A DNA stretch of 64,000 nt. Source: Gammaproteobacteria bacterium (GTDB taxonomy: Bacteria > Pseudomonadota > Gammaproteobacteria > UBA4575). The position numbers and the translations under genes were made by a program. The notes beneath the pieces are model-generated. The model made no database searches. It was given only the letters and a program-made list of their open reading frames with translations, and had not been told where the DNA came from. Below, piece after piece: positions 28,409 to 37,497 of the stretch. Position 1 is the first letter of the stretch. Each line of letters starts with the position of its first letter. The stretch spans positions 1,504,894 to 1,568,893 of the forward strand of contig CP046178.1 of NCBI GenBank assembly GCA_014075255.1, written 5' to 3'.

Positions 28409-29452
28409 ATGATCGGTGCATATATGAATACAAATATTCTACCTAAAATTTACTCAACCATCGCTCTAGGAATGTTGCTGTTAGCTGCAGTCGCCAGCGC
28501 CGCTGAAGTTAATATTTATTCTGCGAGAAAAGAAGATCTCATCAAACCCATTCTTGAAAAGTTTGAGCAAGACACTGACATTAAAGTTAATCTCATTACA
28601 GGAAAAGCGGATGCACTATTGCAGCGTTTAATTAGTGAAGGTAAAAACAGCCCCGCAGATATTTTAATTACCACAGATGCGGGTCGTCTATACCGTGCAA
28701 AAAATGCAAAGGTCTTACAAAAAATTGACTCCGAAACGTTAACAATCTCGATCCCAGAACAATATCGAGATCCAGAGGGCTACTGGTTTGGCCTAACACT
28801 ACGTGCACGGCCAATCGTTTACGCTACAGATCGTGTGCAGCCCGATCAACTCTCAACTTATGAAGCATTAGTTAATCTGAAATGGAAACAAAAAATTTGT
28901 ATACGATCCTCGGACAACATATATAACCAATCACTCGTCGCTTCTTTAATTGCGCAGTTAGGCGAAGAAGATACCTTTAAATGGACTGAATCATTTGTAA
29001 AAAACTTTGCTCGGCCGCCTCAAGGTGGAGATCGCGATCAAATTAAAGCCATTGCAGCAGGACAGTGTGATATCGCATTAGTAAACAATTATTATCTTGG
29101 CAATATGCTGACCTCTAAAAATGAATCGGAAGCTGAAGCAGCTAAAAAGGTAAAAATATTTTGGCCAAACCAAAAAGATAGAGGCACACATGTCAATATT
29201 AGCGGTGCCGCCATAACCGCTTCATCTAAAAACAAGGAAGCTGCCCTCCAATTACTAGAATTCTTAGTAAGTGATGCCGCACAACAATGGTATGCAGAAA
29301 AAAATCTTGAGTACCCTATCAAACCAGGGATACAACCTAGTGAGATCTTACAGTCATGGGGTGAATTTAAGGCTGATTCATTAAACTTGCATCATCTCGG
29401 CGAACATAATGCGCAAGCCGTGATGATTATGGATCGTGCCAAATGGAAATGA
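28409..29452 (+). CDS. fbpA: Fe(3+) ABC transporter periplasmic substrate-binding protein
   Basis: Signal peptide. Similarity to H. influenzae FbpA (VNIYS, SPADIL, ALVNNYY). Confidence 0.75.
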   Translation: MIGAYMNTNILPKIYSTIALGMLLLAAVASAAEVNIYSARKEDLIKPILEKFEQDTDIKVNLITGKADALLQRLISEGKNSPADILITTDAGRLYRAKNAKVLQKIDSETLTISIPEQYRDPEGYWFGLTLRARPIVYATDRVQPDQLSTYEALVNLKWKQKICIRSSDNIYNQSLVASLIAQLGEEDTFKWTESFVKNFARPPQGGDRDQIKAIAAGQCDIALVNNYYLGNMLTSKNESEAEAAKKVKIFWPNQKDRGTHVNISGAAITASSKNKEAALQLLEFLVSDAAQQWYAEKNLEYPIKPGIQPSEILQSWGEFKADSLNLHHLGEHNAQAVMIMDRAKWK

Positions 29453-29495
29453 GCTAGTGGAATTAGATAAATAAAAATACTTCTGTAACCATCCC

Positions 29496-31172
29496 ATGGA
29501 CGCAACTCACGAAATTGACAAGCAACACATTTTATTGCGCAATTTTTTGCAGCAAAAAAGCAACTTTGGATGGATTCTAGGCACAGTCGTTATTGCCTTA
29601 TTGATTAGCATTCCTGTTCTTACGGTCTTATCTTCAATAATTCTTCCAAGTAGCGATGTTTGGCAACATCTCAAAGCTACAGTACTAACAGAATACATAA
29701 AAAACTCACTCCTGCTAGTAATCGGGGTCAGCGTTGGCACGCTCACCATTGGAATAACAACGGCTTGGTTATGTAGCGTATGCGAATTTCCGGGACGTAA
29801 AATATTTAGTTGGTTATTACTTCTTCCTCTCGCCTTTCCACCCTATATCATCGCTTATACCTACACAGGCTTGCTGGATTTTGCTGGCCCAATACAAAGT
29901 ATCATACGCGAACAATTTGGCTGGGGATTTGGAGATTACTGGTTTCCACAAGTGCGCACTCTTAGCGGTGCAATCACGATGCTATCATTGGTGCTCTATC
30001 CGTATATCTATTTACTTACACGCACCGCTTTTTCAGAGCAATCAGCAAGCTTTCGCGAAGCCAGTCATATACTAGGTATAGGCCTAGGTAAAACATTCCT
30101 AAAAGCTGCATTACCTTTAGCAAGACCCGCGATAATTGCTGGTTTAACACTCGTGGTAATGGAAACTTTAGCAGACTATGGAACCGTACATTATTTTGGC
30201 ATTCCTACCTTTACCACAGGAATCTTTCGTACATGGTTTGGACTGGGTGATCGTGTTGCTGCTACACAATTAGCCAGCCTATTATTACTTTTTGTGTTTC
30301 TAGTAATAATTATCGAACGTTACAGTCGTAAATCAGAAAAATATCAGAATCTTTCTAACGCACAAAAAAAATGGCGCTACCCCTTATCAGGCACCAAAGC
30401 AACGTTAGCAATATTTATTTGCTCAATACCCATTTTGTTAGGATTTATTATTCCAGCACTACAGTTATTTTTCTGGGCCATCAAAACAGCACCGGATATT
30501 GTTAACAACTCGTTTTACGAATTGGTTTTTAACACCATTAGACTTGCATTAATGGTTGCAACACTCGTTGTAGCAGCTGCAACCTTTCTGGCCTATGGGA
30601 AACGCGTAAGCTCTCATTATATCGTCCCTTACAGTGTTAATATCAGCGCAATGGGTTATGCCGTTCCAGGAATTATTATTGCAGTAGGTGTCTTACTACC
30701 TTTTGCATGGTTCGATAATGCGTTGGATTCTTGGTTAGAAAACAACTTTGGAATATCGAGTGGCTTACTATTAACTGGCACACTTGCAGCACTGGTTTTT
30801 GCGCATGTTGTGCGCTTCATGGCAATCGGCCTTAACTCTGTTGATGCAAGTCTTGCTAAAATTCACCGCAATGTTGATGATGCTGCACAACTATTAGGGC
30901 ATAAAACTTTTGATCGTTTCTTCAGTGTGCATCTACCCTTAATCCGTAGCGGTGTGCTTACTGCAGCATTACTTGTATTTGTCGAAGTAATAAAAGAACT
31001 GCCTGCAACATTAGTATTGCGCCCATTTAATTTTAATACCCTCGCTGTTCGAACTTATGAGCTAGCATCAGACGAACGATTAGCGGATTCAGCTTGTAGT
31101 GCACTACTCATCGTTGCAGTAGGTATCCTGCCCATCCTAATCCTAAATCGCTCTATCACTAAGAATCAGTAA
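29496..31172 (+). CDS. fbpB: Fe(3+) ABC transporter permease (duplicated permease domains)
   Basis: 558 aa with two tandem permease modules of about 6 TM each, typical of FbpB/ThiP. Confidence 0.75.
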   Translation: MDATHEIDKQHILLRNFLQQKSNFGWILGTVVIALLISIPVLTVLSSIILPSSDVWQHLKATVLTEYIKNSLLLVIGVSVGTLTIGITTAWLCSVCEFPGRKIFSWLLLLPLAFPPYIIAYTYTGLLDFAGPIQSIIREQFGWGFGDYWFPQVRTLSGAITMLSLVLYPYIYLLTRTAFSEQSASFREASHILGIGLGKTFLKAALPLARPAIIAGLTLVVMETLADYGTVHYFGIPTFTTGIFRTWFGLGDRVAATQLASLLLLFVFLVIIIERYSRKSEKYQNLSNAQKKWRYPLSGTKATLAIFICSIPILLGFIIPALQLFFWAIKTAPDIVNNSFYELVFNTIRLALMVATLVVAAATFLAYGKRVSSHYIVPYSVNISAMGYAVPGIIIAVGVLLPFAWFDNALDSWLENNFGISSGLLLTGTLAALVFAHVVRFMAIGLNSVDASLAKIHRNVDDAAQLLGHKTFDRFFSVHLPLIRSGVLTAALLVFVEVIKELPATLVLRPFNFNTLAVRTYELASDERLADSACSALLIVAVGILPILILNRSITKNQ

Positions 31173-31217
31173 TACCAAGATGCGATTATGCCAAAGAATA
31201 ATAGTGAATAAAAAATT

Positions 31218-32264
31218 ATGACCACAAGACTGGATGTGCGCAACCTTAGTGTTGAACTGCAAGGCAGAAAAGTATTGCAGAATGTTTCGTTGCAATTACA
31301 GCAAGGTCAAATTGCTTCAATGTTAGGGCCAAGTGGCTGCGGCAAAACAACTTTATTGCGAACTCTTGCAGGGTTTCAGCCCGTTGCCAAAGGCGAAATT
31401 TATGTGCACGACAAATTGTTCGGCAAACCAGGTTATTCCTTAGCACCGGAAAATCGGAACCTGGGTATGATGTTTCAAGATTTAGCATTGTTTCCACATT
31501 TAACGGTCGAGCAAAATATTAACTTTGGCCTTAAATCACTTGTAAAATCAGCACAGCAGGCAAGAACTAAACATGTGCTCGAATTAACCGAACTTGATCA
31601 ACAAGAAAAAAAATATCCGCATCAGCTATCTGGCGGCCAGCAACAGCGCGTTGCCTTAGCGCGTGCACTTGCACCGAAACCAGAAATTCTTTTACTCGAC
31701 GAACCTTTTTCAAGCTTAGATCCTGACTTAAGAGAACAGGTTGCCACTGAAGTACGCAAGATTCTTAAACATGAAAATGTAACTGCAGTACTCGTAACCC
31801 ATGACCAGCTCGAAGCTTTTGCTATGGCCGATGAAATTGGAGTAATGGAAAATGGCAACATCGCTCAATGGGACAGTGCCTACAATATTTACCATAAACC
31901 TAAAACCCGTTTTGTCGCTGACTTTGTAGGTTTGGGGAGCATGGTTCCGGCTACAGTTGTAAATGATGAAACACTGGATACAGAATTTGGTGAAGTAAAA
32001 GGTGCGCTTAACGGTGAGCACGCTATTGGCGACACGGTAGACCTATTAGTGCGGCCCGATGACATTCCACATGACGATAGTAGCCATATTACTGCGCTGG
32101 TTGAAGAAAAGCGTTTTCGAGGCGCAGAATTCCTCTACAAATTACGTCTTCAAAGTGGCAATTTTGTACTCTGTTACGCGCCTAGTCACCACAATCATAA
32201 AATTGGTGAACCGATTGGTATAAAGCTGGATCTAGAACATTTAGTGGTATTCCCAAGGGCTTAA
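31218..32264 (+). CDS. fbpC: Fe(3+) ABC transporter ATP-binding protein
   Basis: Walker A GPSGCGKTT, signature LSGGQQQRVALAR, Walker B LLLDEPFS. C-terminal TOBE-like extension. 348 aa. Confidence 0.75.
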   Translation: MTTRLDVRNLSVELQGRKVLQNVSLQLQQGQIASMLGPSGCGKTTLLRTLAGFQPVAKGEIYVHDKLFGKPGYSLAPENRNLGMMFQDLALFPHLTVEQNINFGLKSLVKSAQQARTKHVLELTELDQQEKKYPHQLSGGQQQRVALARALAPKPEILLLDEPFSSLDPDLREQVATEVRKILKHENVTAVLVTHDQLEAFAMADEIGVMENGNIAQWDSAYNIYHKPKTRFVADFVGLGSMVPATVVNDETLDTEFGEVKGALNGEHAIGDTVDLLVRPDDIPHDDSSHITALVEEKRFRGAEFLYKLRLQSGNFVLCYAPSHHNHKIGEPIGIKLDLEHLVVFPRA

Positions 32265-32436
32265 TTGGCATTACTTTGGACATTGAACCTCTATTGGTCT
32301 CCCTTCGTGATGGATAGATATAATCCATTCATAAATGAGCATTCAAGGACTTAGAGGCCTATTATTAAATTGGACTTGACCTTAGGCGTATAAACCACAA
32401 CAATTATAAGGAAGATGCTAACTAGAGGAGTCAAGC

Positions 32437-32808
32437 ATGAGACTTAGTAAATCCATAATTTACCTTTTAATACTTTCATTTATTTTTGTACAAATTTCAC
32501 CCGCTTTTGCTGGCATCGTTGGAACGGATAGTTATCTATCTGAGCAAACTATCCAGCAAGACCGTGAAGACTTACGCGCACTTATGTCACGTGACGAGGT
32601 TCGTTTACTACTAGAAACCAATGGCCTGACTATGGAGCAAGCACAAGCGCGTGTGGATTCTCTGACAGATAAAGAAGTAAGCCAGATGGCGAAGAAATTT
32701 GATGAATTACCTGCAGCAGGTGACGCAGCAGTGGTTGTTCTTGTGATCGCTTTAGTTGTATTGGTCCTTGAACTTGCGGGTATTACCGATATCTTTACCG
32801 GCATTTGA
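32437..32808 (+). CDS. PA2779-family-like small secreted protein with hydrophobic C-terminal tail
   Basis: Signal peptide ending AFA, then a ~70-aa soluble segment, a conserved ELPAAG motif and a 30-aa hydrophobic tail. Paralogous to 50316..50677. TGA stop overlaps the TTG start of the next gene. Confidence 0.6.
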   Translation: MRLSKSIIYLLILSFIFVQISPAFAGIVGTDSYLSEQTIQQDREDLRALMSRDEVRLLLETNGLTMEQAQARVDSLTDKEVSQMAKKFDELPAAGDAAVVVLVIALVVLVLELAGITDIFTGI

Positions 32809-33815
32809 TCGCCCGTAAAATATTTTTCATACTTAATAATGCCCGCTGTATTGCGGGCATTTTTTTGTTCTTAATCTCGCTTTCTGCATGCGTTGCGCCT
32901 CAAACTAAGCAATTACAAATAGAGCGCCCGCACGACCTACCGACCAAAGCGTTTATAAAAAACGTACCCTTTTACCCGCAACAGCAATTTCATTGCGGCC
33001 CTTCTAGCTTAGCCATGGCAATGAATTTTTATAGTAAAAATGTAACGCCTGAAAATCTTGCTAAAGATGTGTTCACTCCAGGCCGCAAAGGCAGTTTTCA
33101 AGCAGAAATGAAAGCAGCGGTACGCAAACGCGGAATGATTGCATATGAGCTCACTCCTGAACTGGTCTATTTACTCGCCGAAGTTTCGGTGGGACACCCA
33201 GTTATTATTTTACAAAACAAATCTATTAAATATTACCCTGTCTGGCATTACGCTTTAGTTATTGGTTATGACTTAAATAAAAAACAAATTTATTTACACT
33301 CAGGCACAAATAAAAATTACGCGGTATCAATGAGTGTGTTTGAATTTACCTGGAAACGTTCGAAACGCTGGGCGATGGCAGTGCTGCCAACAGACACATT
33401 ACCCAATGACCGCAATCTTATAAATGTATTACAAGCGGCAGTAGACTTAGAAGAAGTAGGCCAAGTCGAAGCCGCAAATCAAACGTATCAAACCATTACA
33501 AAACGTTGGCCAGATAGTTTAGTTGCCGTAATGGGTACTGCGAATACGCATTTAACGTTAGACAATCCTGATAACGCTACTAAATTCTATTTGCGTGCTA
33601 TTGAATTGGAACCGCAACGGGCAGATATCTATAACAATCTCGCCTATAGTCTACAAGCACAATCTTGTTACCAGTCATCATTACGTTCAATTAACTGTGC
33701 AATTTCTTTAGATCCCAGTAGTGCTGAATTCCTGGACTCGCATCGCGAAATCACTCAGTCAACCAACAAATCAACCCTAAAGTCTTGCCCGAGAATCCGT
33801 TGTGGCAGCCCATAA
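32805..33815 (+). CDS. PA2778-family-like C39 cysteine peptidase / TPR-repeat lipoprotein
   Basis: Lipobox LSAC. Papain-like C39 active-site context QQFHCGPSSLAMAM plus a downstream His (VWHYAL). C-terminal TPR-like repeats. TTG start is coupled to the upstream gene. Confidence 0.65.
   Translation: MIARKIFFILNNARCIAGIFLFLISLSACVAPQTKQLQIERPHDLPTKAFIKNVPFYPQQQFHCGPSSLAMAMNFYSKNVTPENLAKDVFTPGRKGSFQAEMKAAVRKRGMIAYELTPELVYLLAEVSVGHPVIILQNKSIKYYPVWHYALVIGYDLNKKQIYLHSGTNKNYAVSMSVFEFTWKRSKRWAMAVLPTDTLPNDRNLINVLQAAVDLEEVGQVEAANQTYQTITKRWPDSLVAVMGTANTHLTLDNPDNATKFYLRAIELEPQRADIYNNLAYSLQAQSCYQSSLRSINCAISLDPSSAEFLDSHREITQSTNKSTLKSCPRIRCGSP
32838..32866 (+). terminator. GC-rich stem-loop plus T-run embedded in the signal-peptide codons of the peptidase gene (possible attenuator)
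   Basis: aatgcccgc-tgtatt-gcgggcat followed by ttttttt. It encodes NARCIAGIF of the lipoprotein signal peptide. Confidence 0.4.
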
Positions 33816-33982
33816 GTAATTATGGTGCGGGTTTACTCCCCTACAACCACTCTTGCCTAGGTCTGATTAGATACGTCCATGTAACGATAAATCGATAAAC
33901 CAAACATCGATACACATATGCTGACACCAGCAGTCGATTACATTTACACTATGCAGCCTGTAAATCTCTGCATGGTGTAAAA

Positions 33983-35677
33983 GTGGCCAAACAAAAAACT
34001 AAAAACAAAGCTAGTAGAAAATATTCCTCGATGGTGGTCGATGGGGTTGAGCGTGCGCCCAGCCGCGCCATGCTACGTGCAGTAGGCTTTGAAGATGCAG
34101 ACTTCAACAAGCCACAGATTGGAATCGCTTCTACCTGGAGCATGGTTACCCCCTGCAATATGCACATCGACAAACTTGCTGATGAGGCTGCAAAAGGCGC
34201 GAACCAGGCTGGTGGCAAAGCGGTAATCTTTAACACCATTACAATCTCCGATGGCATTTCGATGGGCACAGAGGGAATGAAGTACTCCTTGGTGTCTCGC
34301 GAAGTAATTGCTGATTCAATAGAAACGGTGGCAGGTTGTGAAGGTTTCGATGGCATCGTCACCATTGGCGGATGCGACAAAAACATGCCGGGATGTTTGA
34401 TTGCGCTCGCGCGTTTGAATCGTCCCTCAGTATTTGTCTATGGCGGAACAATCATGCCTGGCAATTATAAAAACAAAAAAGTGGATGTGGTTTCCGTTTT
34501 TGAAGCCGTGGGGCAGCACGCTAAAAAAGAATTAAGCGATCAAGAACTTAAGCAAGTTGAGTCGACAGCAATACCTGGCGCCGGCTCATGTGGCGGCATG
34601 TACACCGCCAATACCATGGCTTCAGCTATAGAAGCCTTAGGTATGAGTTTGCCTAATAGTTCCGCACAAAATGCCATTTCAAATGATAAGCAAAATGATT
34701 GCATCGCTGCTGGCGAAGCGGTGATGGATTTAATTAAACAAAATATTTTACCCAAAGATATCATGACTAAAAAAGCGTTCCAAAATGCTATTACGGTTCT
34801 GATTACTCTAGGCGGTTCAACCAATGCAGTACTGCACTTACTTGCCATGGCGCATGCTATGGGAGTGAAACTCACCATTGATGAATTCACTCGCGTGGGT
34901 AAAAAAGTACCGGTTCTTGCAGATCTACGCCCGAGCGGCAAATACATGATGTCCGAGCTGATAGAAATTGGCGGCATCCAACCGCTGATGAAAATGCTCT
35001 TGGACAAAGGATTATTACATGGAGATTGCCTAACGGTGACTGGCAAAACATTGGCGCAAAATTTAAAAACTGTTAAGCCTTATCCAAAGTCGCAAGATAT
35101 TATTCGTGATTTTGATAATCCAATAAAAAAAGACAGCCATCTAGTTATTCTATATGGAAACTTAGCGCCCGAAGGAGCTGTGGCTAAAATTTCCGGCAAA
35201 GAAGGTTTAAATTTCACCGGTAAAGCGCGGGTGTTTGCGTCAGAAGAAAAAGCTTTAGAAAAAATTCTAGATGGTGGAATTAAGAAAGGTGATGTAATCG
35301 TGATTCGCTATGAAGGCCCGCAAGGCGGACCGGGGATGCGCGAAATGTTGTCACCTACTTCTGCAATCATGGGAAAAGGACTCGGCAAAGACGTTGCTTT
35401 AATTACCGATGGCCGCTTCTCAGGCGGTAGTCATGGTTTTGTGGTCGGCCACATCACCCCAGAAGCTGCGGTTGGTGGGCCACTCGCTCTAGTAAAGAAT
35501 GGCGATCAAATCACCATTGACGCACAGAAGCGCGAAATCAACGTGAATCTATCTAAGAAAGAACTCGCGCTGCGTAAAAAGAAATGGACTGCACCTAAAC
35601 CCCGTTATAAACGTGGGGTTTTAGCTAAATATGCAGCACAAGTATCTTCCGCATCAAATGGCGCTGTAACGGACTAA
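33983..35677 (+). CDS. ilvD: IlvD/EDD-family dehydratase (dihydroxy-acid dehydratase-like)
   Basis: GCDKNMPG and SGGSHG motifs with N-terminal similarity to IlvD. 564 aa. GTG start. Confidence 0.8.
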
Positions 35678-35929
35678 CCTAATTGATGGCTCTATAAATT
35701 CGCTTTGATGCAGGGAAGCATCACTGATTTACCAGCACATAAGTGATTGTAAATCGTGAAAAAGATATCGCATTATCGTCTTTCGTCTCTGAAGAACTCA
35801 GAATGGCTTCATTCAGAGCTACTAAGTATCTATAAAGCATAAATTGTCAGGCGTGGAATAAGTAGATAGGATTGCCCGTTCTAATTATTACCACTTTAGT
35901 ATTACCACTAAAACTTTAAGGAGCTGTCG

Positions 35930-36568
35930 ATGGCGGAATTACTCACAGGTAAAGCACTAGAAGAGGTCATAGAGCGCAAAAACAAAATGCGTCGCGAAGC
36001 ATATGACCGCCGTGCTGCACAAGAAAATAAAGAAGAAGTTAGCGCAAAAGCATGTGCAAATTTTATGACACTTCCTGAATACCAAAAATCTAATGTTGCT
36101 ATGTGGTACATCGATTGCCGCTCAGAGACTCGCACTAAAGATGAATTAATTGCAGAAGTTAATAAAGGGGAAAAGAAAATTATTGTTCCTTATTGCACTG
36201 AAGACGAAAATGGCGATAACAAGCTTGGCCTGTGGTGGATGGAAAGCTTGGAAGAAATGGTTGTTGGCAAATGGGACATCCTAGAGCCACCTAAAGAATT
36301 ATGGGGCAACCCAGAAAAAGAAGTAACTCCTGAAGAAATCGACATCATTATGGTTCCAGGCACTGGCTTTGATAAGAAAGGTGGTCGCATGGGTAATGGT
36401 CAAGGCTATTACGATCGTTTACTCGAGCAACTTCGCGCAGATTGTCCTCTAGTAGCACTATGTTATGAGTCACAAATGTTTGATGAAATTCTTGTGGCGC
36501 CTCATGATGTATTCATGGACAAAGTGGTTACTGAAGATGCTGTGTACGAAGGCATCGGTCGAGGTTAA
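35930..36568 (+). CDS. 5-formyltetrahydrofolate cyclo-ligase (MTHFS) family protein
   Basis: Conserved VPGTGFDKKGGRMGNGQGYYDRLL block. 212 aa. Confidence 0.7.
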   Translation: MAELLTGKALEEVIERKNKMRREAYDRRAAQENKEEVSAKACANFMTLPEYQKSNVAMWYIDCRSETRTKDELIAEVNKGEKKIIVPYCTEDENGDNKLGLWWMESLEEMVVGKWDILEPPKELWGNPEKEVTPEEIDIIMVPGTGFDKKGGRMGNGQGYYDRLLEQLRADCPLVALCYESQMFDEILVAPHDVFMDKVVTEDAVYEGIGRG

Positions 36569-36573
36569 TTATT

Positions 36574-37497
36574 ATGGCTGCAAAAATTGATGATACTTAC
36601 GCAGAAGCGTTTAAAAGTCTCTATACAGAATTCTTAATCACTGCACGTGACCGCAAATGGCTAGACCACGCGGTTAATGCTGCAACGGGCAACGCATCAA
36701 GTTCAATCTTGTGTGATTGTGAAGCTGGAATGGATCGCTATGTCGGTCCTGGTGGTGATGAAAGTTTTGAGACTCCTGACGGTCGCCCAGGGGCTATCGT
36801 ACAACTTCACATTCCACGCTTTCGCAAAGATCGTGTAAAAGCGTTAGAAAAATCTGCATTAGTGCGTATCAGTCAAAACGTTATGACTTGCCCTACCGCC
36901 TCATGTTTCAACTTGGTTGATTCAGAAGAGTATTACCATATGGGTCGTAAAGTGGCTTACTTTGGTAACGGTTACCAGAAACGTATCGAACGATTTGGTC
37001 GCAAGATGTGGTGGATTCCAACCCTAGGTGGAGAATTCATTTTAGATCGTCGTCTTGGTTATGCAGATGGGCTCATGGGCGGCAACCTTTGGTTCTTCGG
37101 TGACAGTGTGGATTCTGCACTACTTGCTGCAGAAAAAGGCGTGGAAGCGATCCTACCAATGCCGGGTGTTATCTCAACCTTCCCTGGCGGTATTGCAAGC
37201 AGTGGTTCAAAAGCTGGAAGTAACTACGACTTTACCATTGCCAGCACGTACGAAAAATTCTGCCCAATGTTACAAGATGATCCTACGGTTGAAGCTGGAT
37301 TACCAGAAGGCGTTAACTGTGTAATGGAAATCATCATGAATGGCCAAGGTATGCAACCGATTATTGATGCCACGCAAGCTGCGATTAAAGCTTCGGTAGA
37401 CACACCAGGACTGATTATGATTTCTGCTGGCAACTACAATGGAAAGTTAGGTAAGAGCTTTATCTATCTAGATCCAAGTAAACAGCCTGCTGAATAA
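36574..37497 (+). CDS. formylmethanofuran:tetrahydromethanopterin formyltransferase (Ftr/FhcD) family protein
   Basis: N-terminal IDDTYAEAF...FLITA and ...ETPDGRPGAIVQLHIP match the Ftr family. 307 aa. Confidence 0.7.
   Translation: MAAKIDDTYAEAFKSLYTEFLITARDRKWLDHAVNAATGNASSSILCDCEAGMDRYVGPGGDESFETPDGRPGAIVQLHIPRFRKDRVKALEKSALVRISQNVMTCPTASCFNLVDSEEYYHMGRKVAYFGNGYQKRIERFGRKMWWIPTLGGEFILDRRLGYADGLMGGNLWFFGDSVDSALLAAEKGVEAILPMPGVISTFPGGIASSGSKAGSNYDFTIASTYEKFCPMLQDDPTVEAGLPEGVNCVMEIIMNGQGMQPIIDATQAAIKASVDTPGLIMISAGNYNGKLGKSFIYLDPSKQPAE

Follow-up and report, generated by a model that had tools for sequence, protein, structure and literature searches.

What does a lipoprotein with a cysteine peptidase domain do with the small protein whose stop codon overlaps its own start codon? 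This question is raised by two adjacent genes in a 64,000-nucleotide (nt) stretch of contig CP046178.1 (assembly GCA_014075255.1, positions 1,504,894 to 1,568,893) from a Gammaproteobacteria bacterium. The whole stretch is referred to as the window, and coordinates are window positions. The upstream open reading frame (ORF), ORF A, encodes a small protein of the PA2779 family. The downstream ORF B encodes a PA2778-family lipoprotein which combines a C39 peptidase domain with tetratricopeptide repeats (TPR).

We propose that the pair is a two-gene module of the cell envelope, in which the peptidase clips the small protein as a dedicated sheddase and thereby releases its soluble domain. This proposal is tentative, and we assign it a probability of about 0.45. 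The product of ORF A would be exported by the Sec pathway and lose its signal peptide, so that a helical domain of about 65 residues is exposed to the periplasm and the hydrophobic C-terminal tail tethers the protein to the membrane. ORF B would be a periplasmic lipoprotein with a C39 (double-glycine-type) peptidase fused to a protein-binding TPR domain. It would bind the small protein and cut it just outside the membrane, at an exposed Pro-Ala-(Gly/Ala)-(Gly/small) hinge, parting the soluble domain from its tether. A hairpin would end most transcripts, leaving the substrate in large excess and the enzyme scarce, and read-through might depend on ribosomes re-initiating at the overlapping start codon.

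Families, linkage and fold of the two proteins

ORF A scored 96.7 bits against the NCBIfam model NF033919 (PA2779_fam, cut-off 40) and 84.5 bits against Pfam DUF6627 (PF20332, cut-off 27). ORF B reached 317.1 bits against NF033920 (C39_PA2778_fam, an equivalog model, cut-off 150), covering profile positions 2-255 of 255, and matched Peptidase_C39_2, Peptidase_C39 and several TPR families of Pfam. With both ORFs well above the curated family cut-offs, chance is excluded. An initial annotation of the window had assigned both families, which these matches confirm, and everything it had located, i.e. the ORF coordinates, the signal peptide and soluble segment of ORF A, the TGA/TTG overlap, the LSAC lipobox, the Cys and His residues and the TPRs, was found in place. 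The pair belongs to the already catalogued PA2779/PA2778 families, so the annotation as such adds nothing new; an entry in NCBI whose sequence is 100% identical with that of ORF A is already named "MAG: PA2779 family protein [Gammaproteobacteria bacterium]". A full-text literature search found passing mentions only and no functional study of PA2778/PA2779, DUF6627, PF20332, NF033919 or NF033920. PA2779 appears as a hypothetical gene adjoining bswR in a passage of PMC3985676.

The pair is widespread. A genome scan with one genome per species yielded at least 595 loci, i.e. species representatives, with a relative of the peptidase, and the best 80 were kept (L001-L080). These come from Gamma-, Beta-, Alpha- and Zetaproteobacteria, Desulfobacterales, Geobacteraceae and one bin labelled Verrucomicrobiaceae; the closest loci are from metagenome-assembled genomes labelled Gammaproteobacteria or Thiotrichales. 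Directly upstream of the peptidase, on the same strand, a PA2779-like ORF was found in 80/80 loci, twice in tandem copies, and the window pair has the same gene order and tight coupling. The TTGA overlap itself recurs in the close relatives L002 and L004; at most other loci the start lies 0-20 nt past the stop. No Shine-Dalgarno sequence is visible before the TTG start of ORF B. Clustering of the flanking ORFs revealed no third conserved gene, the next-largest clusters being antisense or out-of-frame artefacts, and no exporter, modification enzyme, immunity or peptidoglycan-related gene conserved near the pair. Tandem copies of the small gene precede a lone peptidase gene or sit at the ends of contigs (L026:2907-3846, L069:3099-3961, L118, L128, L131, L140, L151), and in some genomes there is also a second paralogue with about 57% identity (P0108-P0112).

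The AlphaFold2 (AF2) model of ORF B, built with 25 homologues, has a mean predicted local distance difference test (pLDDT) score of 91.6 and a predicted template modelling (pTM) score of 0.83. In it, a signal-peptide helix leads through a short linker into an alpha/beta domain (residues ~47-200), which is followed by seven TPR-type helices (residues 205-317). The top Foldseek match in the PDB was 3erv, a putative C39-like peptidase (E = 4.8e-6), which establishes the papain-like C39 fold on which the initial annotation had made its proposal depend. TPR structures dominate the fold matches, including LpoP, an activator of a peptidoglycan synthase, and YbgF, and phmmer with the whole protein returned only TPR proteins from the PDB. 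Searched alone against PDB sequences, the peptidase domain had LahT150 as its sole match (E = 0.14). It is 23-28% identical to the peptidase domains of AMS/PCAT and carries the Q-x4-C-G signature within the active-site motif Q59-QFH-C64-GPSSLAMAM. Gln59, Cys64 and His148 are invariant in an alignment of 25 sequences; Asp156 is present in at least 90% and replaced by Asn in some. Likewise, the lipobox residue Cys29 is invariant (25/25 aligned homologues), L-S-A-C29 conforms to the bacterial lipoprotein pattern [LVI][ASTVI][GAS]C, and the lipobox lies 5' of the peptidase motif in most loci. ORF B appears to be catalytically competent, and its being a lipoprotein should place its activity in the periplasm. 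Four further cysteines (C288, C298, C328 and C333; 33666-33806) are conserved only within the clade of the window, in the form SC...NC...SCP...RC. The first two are located in the last TPR helices, and the four residues may form two periplasmic disulfides.

The PA2779-like family has 3,463 representatives at 50% identity (E <= 1e-3), nearly all with 120-140 residues. ORF A and 82 homologues were aligned (83 sequences), and ORF A has the architecture typical of the family: signal peptide, helical domain of about 65 residues, a P-A-G-G-type motif and a hydrophobic C-terminus. Residues 6-25 have a mean Kyte-Doolittle hydropathy of 2.06. Ala25 occupies the putative signal-peptidase site in 82/83 homologues and position -3 is small in most, so the signal peptide is presumably removed at this site. 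Residues 26-92 are hydrophilic (mean hydropathy -0.65), and R43, R52, G63, R72 and E80 are invariant or nearly so across the family. The tail, AAVVVLVIALVVLVLELAGITDIFTGI, is hydrophobic as first described (mean hydropathy 2.49; top 19-residue window 3.1), with a measured length of 27 residues in place of 30. Among the most conserved stretches of the family is the mature N-terminus, G-I-V-G-T-D in ORF A (32512-32529). Over the 83 sequences it reads G/A, M/I/L, V/I, G, T (in 78/83) and D/E. Such conservation of a mature N-terminus is unusual, and the stretch could be a docking element, e.g. for the TPR domain.

A terminator-like hairpin in the signal-peptide codons of ORF B

A hairpin resembling an intrinsic terminator is located 30 nt past the stop codon of ORF A and thus within ORF B (Table 1). 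Its stem of 9 bp contains 6 GC pairs and is followed by TTTTTGTT; the folding free energy (dG) is -16.1 kcal/mol. Counting hairpins with dG <= -10 and a U-tract at most 100 nt from the stop of the small gene, we found the element in 56/80 loci versus 4/320 random windows of the same loci. For the analysis of covariation, the 81 nt 5' of the lipobox Cys codon were aligned from 79 loci (alignment A5). Of the cells of the 9-bp helix, 77% are paired, compared with 40-56% when the partner strand is slid, all nine pairs change on both sides, and 0/500 shuffles attained the observed covariation. At the same time the region is coding. The arms GCCCGC and GCGGGC decode as Ala-Arg and Ala-Gly, the U-tract provides the Phe/Leu/Val core of the signal peptide, and this arrangement recurs throughout the family as A-R-x-x-A-G-(V/I/F)-(F/L). 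This hairpin is absent from the description of the locus in the initial annotation.

Rfam gave no match at gathering score for the hairpin. All sub-threshold matches (RyhB, Leu and Trp leaders, STnc50, Esr41) align to it, and these models end in terminators. The element is a putative intrinsic terminator with a GC-rich hairpin directly followed by a U-tract and conserved by structure, not by sequence. We infer termination of most transcripts downstream of the small gene, with read-through possibly dependent on ribosomes which re-initiate on ORF B and melt the hairpin. We know of no described case of such dual coding by a terminator and a signal peptide, a statement made without a literature search for one. 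An RNA structure and a signal peptide sharing the same bases could provide a way to set the ratio of enzyme to substrate within an operon. In P. stutzeri, the one organism with expression data, the four conditions tested have 39 genes in common in the top 3% by expression, and one of these is the PA2779-family gene (PMC10155442). A stoichiometry set by the hairpin matches this high expression of the small gene and suits the ratio of a substrate to its enzyme.

The junction motif and competing explanations

The motif in which we place the candidate cleavage site joins the soluble part of ORF A to its tail: it follows the last soluble helix and precedes the hydrophobic segment, and AF2 predicts a break there. 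The form reported initially, ELPAAG(D/G), holds for the clade of ORF A as ELPAAG(D), and the family-wide form is [LM]-P-A-[GA]-[GAQS]. Pro92 is found in 79 of the 83 sequences and Ala93 in 81; position 94 is Gly in 70 and Ala in 13, and position 95 is Gly in 64, Ala in 12 and Gln in 4. The one pair of positions with small residues throughout the 83 sequences is Ala93 plus Gly/Ala94. Cleavage by C39 peptidases is usually at GG and occasionally at GA (PMC5557850). Should the enzyme require small P2 and P1 residues like other C39 peptidases, the bond that is cut may be A94|G95 and not G95|D96. The conservation fits cleavage on the C-terminal side of residue 94 (ELPAA|GD) no worse than AAG|D. The idea that the peptidase processes its neighbour, voiced in the initial annotation and still unproven, is consistent with the complete linkage seen from the peptidase side, the invariant catalytic residues and the small-residue junction motif.

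A functional parallel for such a clipping is LapG, a periplasmic cysteine protease of the papain superfamily which frees the adhesin LapA at a di-alanine site. LapG belongs to the transglutaminase-like family C93, is controlled by LapD and cyclic di-GMP (c-di-GMP) and cuts a giant adhesin near its N-terminus. The P-A-A-G of the window resembles the T-A-A-G-type site commonly given for LapG, whereas most PA2779 members have P-A-G-G and not A-A. Another parallel is FapD from the Fap amyloid operon of Pseudomonas, a Sec-exported C39 peptidase active in the periplasm whose target is still unidentified (PMC5557850). As proposed for ORF B, FapD presumably acts on a product of its own operon. At the level of the C39 clan, at which the two are compared, they differ in that FapD is part of a six-gene amyloid secretion operon, with neither TPR nor lipobox mentioned for it (PMC5557850), whereas the PA2778 module consists of two genes. 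If clipping of ORF A by ORF B is true, the pair would offer a simple two-gene model for periplasmic C39 proteolysis and would exemplify a new type of signal in the envelope of Gram-negative bacteria, by which a protein is released from its C-terminal tether.

Several observations weigh against this proposal. In part of the family, residue 95 is Gln, Ser or Glu, which makes a poor P1 residue for a canonical C39 site, and relative to the canonical double-glycine leader pattern the motif is displaced by one residue and has Pro at -4. At +2 after the lipobox Cys stands Val or Ala. The +2 rule of E. coli would direct such a lipoprotein to the outer membrane, away from a site at the surface of the inner membrane. 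Most family tails end with (D/E)-x-x-G-x-T-(K/D)-(V/I)-F-P-F-T-R-S-x-(R/K), whereas the tail in the clade of ORF A ends with ELAGITDIFTGI and has two acidic residues and no basic ones, which leaves the membrane topology uncertain. Two independent clusters contain natural DUF6627-OmpA fusions, P0408 (L161:176-1036) and P0455 (L162:57-887), both on short contigs, in which an OmpA-family peptidoglycan-binding domain (PF00691; E = 5.6e-18 and 6.2e-10) follows the tail. Such fusions are rare, and they are hard to square with a simple anchor with its N-terminus outside and its C-terminus inside. Finally, the AF2 model of ORF A is of low confidence overall (pLDDT 55.6). It shows four short helices, a break at residues 91-97 (pLDDT <50) and a tail helix, and a profile search of ORF A against PDB sequences gave no match under E = 0.05.

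Examined from the side of the small protein, the linkage is less strict. For this reverse test, a metagenome scan was seeded with the tail motif of the small protein (alignment A3, 80 loci), so that its figures apply to the TDILG-TKVFPFT tail subfamily. The peptidase lies directly downstream in 58/73 assessable loci (7/80 end too soon), and 15/73 have no intact peptidase within 0.4-3 kb downstream (L082, L088-L090, L094, L118, L125, L137, L138, L141, L147-L149, L151, L160). L094 holds a peptidase remnant only, and L091, counted among the 58 through weak partial matches, may be another such case. Hence, every peptidase gene in these samples is accompanied by the small gene, whereas the small gene is also found with no peptidase next to it, so the co-occurrence expected in the initial annotation holds in one direction and is incomplete in the other. 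The orphan small proteins keep P-A-G-G and the tail. Retention of the tail is a selection effect of the scan; that of P-A-G-G is not. Either the motif has a role independent of the peptidase, or these genomes encode a peptidase elsewhere. The orphans adjoin genes for BON-domain, LapA_dom and DUF255-thioredoxin proteins, which hints at a peptidase-independent role in the envelope or in stress.

Because orphans keep the motif, position 95 varies, the tail is acidic, the +2 rule points to the outer membrane and OmpA fusions exist, a different explanation stays alive, although we consider it unlikely. The peptidase could attack another target in the envelope, for example stem peptides or cross-links of peptidoglycan or a different periplasmic protein, and the small protein could be an uncleaved, TPR-bound regulator, adaptor, inhibitor or localiser. 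The TPR fold matches to LpoP and YbgF agree with this, the OmpA fusions tie the small protein to a peptidoglycan-binding domain, and the orphans stand next to envelope and stress genes. Precedents are NlpI/MepS and NlpI/Prc (PMC11211486, PMC5686067): NlpI, likewise a TPR lipoprotein of the periplasm, controls the papain-like endopeptidase MepS. There, TPR protein and NlpC/P60 hydrolase are separate proteins, whereas ORF B unites TPRs and hydrolase in one chain, with a catalytic domain of the C39 type. The profiles of ORF B are specifically those of C39 and C39_2, with LahT150 as the only PDB sequence match of the domain. The Q-x4-C-G signature and the identity to AMS/PCAT domains suggest a peptide cutter with a preference for small residues, the neighbouring protein has a motif of this kind, and no peptidoglycan-related gene is conserved nearby.

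A third explanation, which was put forward in the initial annotation, is improbable. The soluble domain would be a long leader and the product a membrane-active or membrane-resident hydrophobic peptide of about 27-35 residues, freed after the Gly motif. LahT150 removes long leaders. A conserved N-terminal and a more variable C-terminal part recall the leader/core layout of peptides matured by C39 enzymes, the tail of most members has a strongly conserved motif of its own, (D/E)-x-x-G-x-T-(K/D)-(V/I)-F-P-F, and LahT150, the closest solved peptidase, is annotated as a double-glycine-motif protease domain. ORF B also has the same fold and catalytic residues as the C39 domains of AMS/PCAT (LahT150, 6mpz; ComA; PCAT1). 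The setting is different, however. AMS/PCAT domains are cytoplasmic, fused to ABC exporters and remove N-terminal leaders, whereas ORF B would be a Sec/Lol-exported TPR lipoprotein without an exporter, its substrate would be Sec-exported, and the candidate site has Pro at -4 and precedes a C-terminal hydrophobic tail. ORF B has neither transmembrane nor ABC domains, ORF A has a Sec signal, and the adjacent ABC genes encode an importer not conserved with the pair. Release from a tether is favoured over a released peptide because the family-invariant residues lie in the soluble domain, because a generic Trp-rich hydrophobic segment ending in Lys replaces the tail in 11/80 genome loci while soluble domain and motif are conserved, because no exporter or immunity gene, nor a modification enzyme, is linked, and because the apparent similarity to Nif11 leaders is not supported. 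Among 25 members, the Nif11-type long-leader model (TIGR03798) hit only L010 (E = 0.1; 12.9 bits versus a cut-off of 32.3), with many similar noise hits. The constitutive top-3% expression in P. stutzeri also fits a structural or housekeeping protein of the envelope better. A membrane-active peptide as the product has found no specific support.

Still less probable is a sortase-like reaction with a single substrate, in which ORF B would cut at P-A-G-G and transfer the small protein, via a thioester, to a peptidoglycan or lipid acceptor, the ratio of both proteins being fixed by the translation-sensitive terminator. One enzyme is linked to one substrate, and in general enzymology cysteine peptidases form acyl-enzyme intermediates. 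A C39 peptidase that acts as a transpeptidase is not known to us, which weighs against this scheme. The C-terminus of the small protein is laid out as a sorting signal, with motif, hydrophobic segment and a mostly basic end (FPFTRSVR), which matches the tripartite GlyGly-CTERM signal (PMC6219818). Similar to GlyGly-CTERM proteins and their rhombosortase, a Gly-rich motif is combined with a linked dedicated protease (PMC6219818, PMC3237569). Rhombosortase, however, is an intramembrane serine protease of the rhomboid type with many substrates, whereas ORF B is a cysteine peptidase with a soluble catalytic domain and is paired one-to-one. With E allowed to reach 10, the GlyGly-CTERM model of NCBIfam matched neither the window protein nor a single one of 25 diverse members, and no other sorting-domain model matched the small protein at this limit. 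The basic cluster is missing from the tail in the clade of the window, and orphan small genes exist.

The reading of PA2778 as a toxin of a type VI secretion system (T6SS) with its small neighbour as immunity gene, which derives from a P. aeruginosa TraDIS preprint that lists PA2778, upstream of a small gene losing transposon insertions when the H1-T6SS is active, as a putative enzymatic toxin with no follow-up there (10.1101/733030), is very improbable and was rejected because of the invariant lipoprotein signal peptide and lipobox, which imply Sec export and not T6SS, and because of a conserved partner upstream with no conserved gene downstream; nor were T6SS genes found among the six flanking genes checked (28409-37497).

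Features and neighbourhood of the locus

The coordinates of all features are compiled in Table 1. Within the families NF033919 and NF033920, the clade of the window is distinguished by P-A-A-G-D, by the tail end ELAGITDIFTGI lacking a basic residue and by the Cys-rich extension of the peptidase. Promoter-like sites near ORF A are no more numerous than in shuffled sequence, so the site listed is weak evidence for a promoter.

Table 1. Features of the ORF A/ORF B pair, in window coordinates
Feature	Position	Strand	Basis or detail
Promoter-like TTGACC-17 nt-AACAAT upstream of ORF A	32376..32404	+	consensus scan, 9/12 matches
Shine-Dalgarno-like GAGGAG, 6 nt 5' of the ORF A ATG	32425..32430	+	read from sequence
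ORF A, PA2779-family / DUF6627 small protein, 123 aa	32437..32808	+	NF033919, PF20332
ORF A putative Sec-type signal peptide, aa 1-25, A-F-A|G	32437..32511	+	R2/K5 n-region, hydrophobic core, A-x-A
ORF A hydrophilic helical domain, aa 26-89	32512..32703	+	alignments; T30, R43, R52, G63, R72, E80 family-invariant
ORF A junction motif E-L-P-A-A-G-D, aa 90-96, candidate cleavage site	32704..32724	+	83-sequence alignment
ORF A hydrophobic C-terminal tail, aa 97-123	32725..32805	+	hydropathy; conserved acidic residue-x-x-G-x-T-D-I-F
TTGA overlap of ORF B TTG start and ORF A TGA stop	32805..32808	+	ATTTGA, TG common to both
ORF B, PA2778-family C39 cysteine peptidase/TPR lipoprotein, 336 aa	32805..33815	+	NF033920, Pfam, AF2
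ORF B lipoprotein signal peptide and lipobox L-S-A-C29	32805..32891	+	alignment
Intrinsic-terminator-like hairpin AATGCCCGC-TGTATT-GCGGGCATT and T-tract	32838..32871	+	terminator scan; codons N-A-R-C-I-A-G-I-F-L-F of ORF B
C39 papain-like peptidase domain, aa ~47-200	32943..33404	+	Gln59 32979-32981, Cys64 32994-32996, His148 33246-33248, Asp156 33270-33272
TPR domain, aa ~205-317, seven helices	33417..33755	+	Pfam TPR_1, TPR_17, TPR_14; AF2 helices
Clade-specific C-terminal extension of ORF B	33756..33812	+	alignment; holds C328, C333

Upstream of the pair, the window encodes a binding-protein-dependent ABC importer (SBP_bac_1, BPD_transp_1, ABC_tran and TOBE_2). Downstream follow ilvD (33983-35677) and the genes for 5-formyltetrahydrofolate (5-formyl-THF) cyclo-ligase and Ftr (35930-37497). 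These neighbours are outside the two-gene module. In the window and in 8 related loci, ilvD is the first gene after the pair, and it is also found directly upstream of the orphans L149 and L160; its proximity is probably coincidental synteny. Ftr is formylmethanofuran-tetrahydromethanopterin formyltransferase and, together with the cyclo-ligase gene, suggests a methylotrophic gammaproteobacterium as the host.

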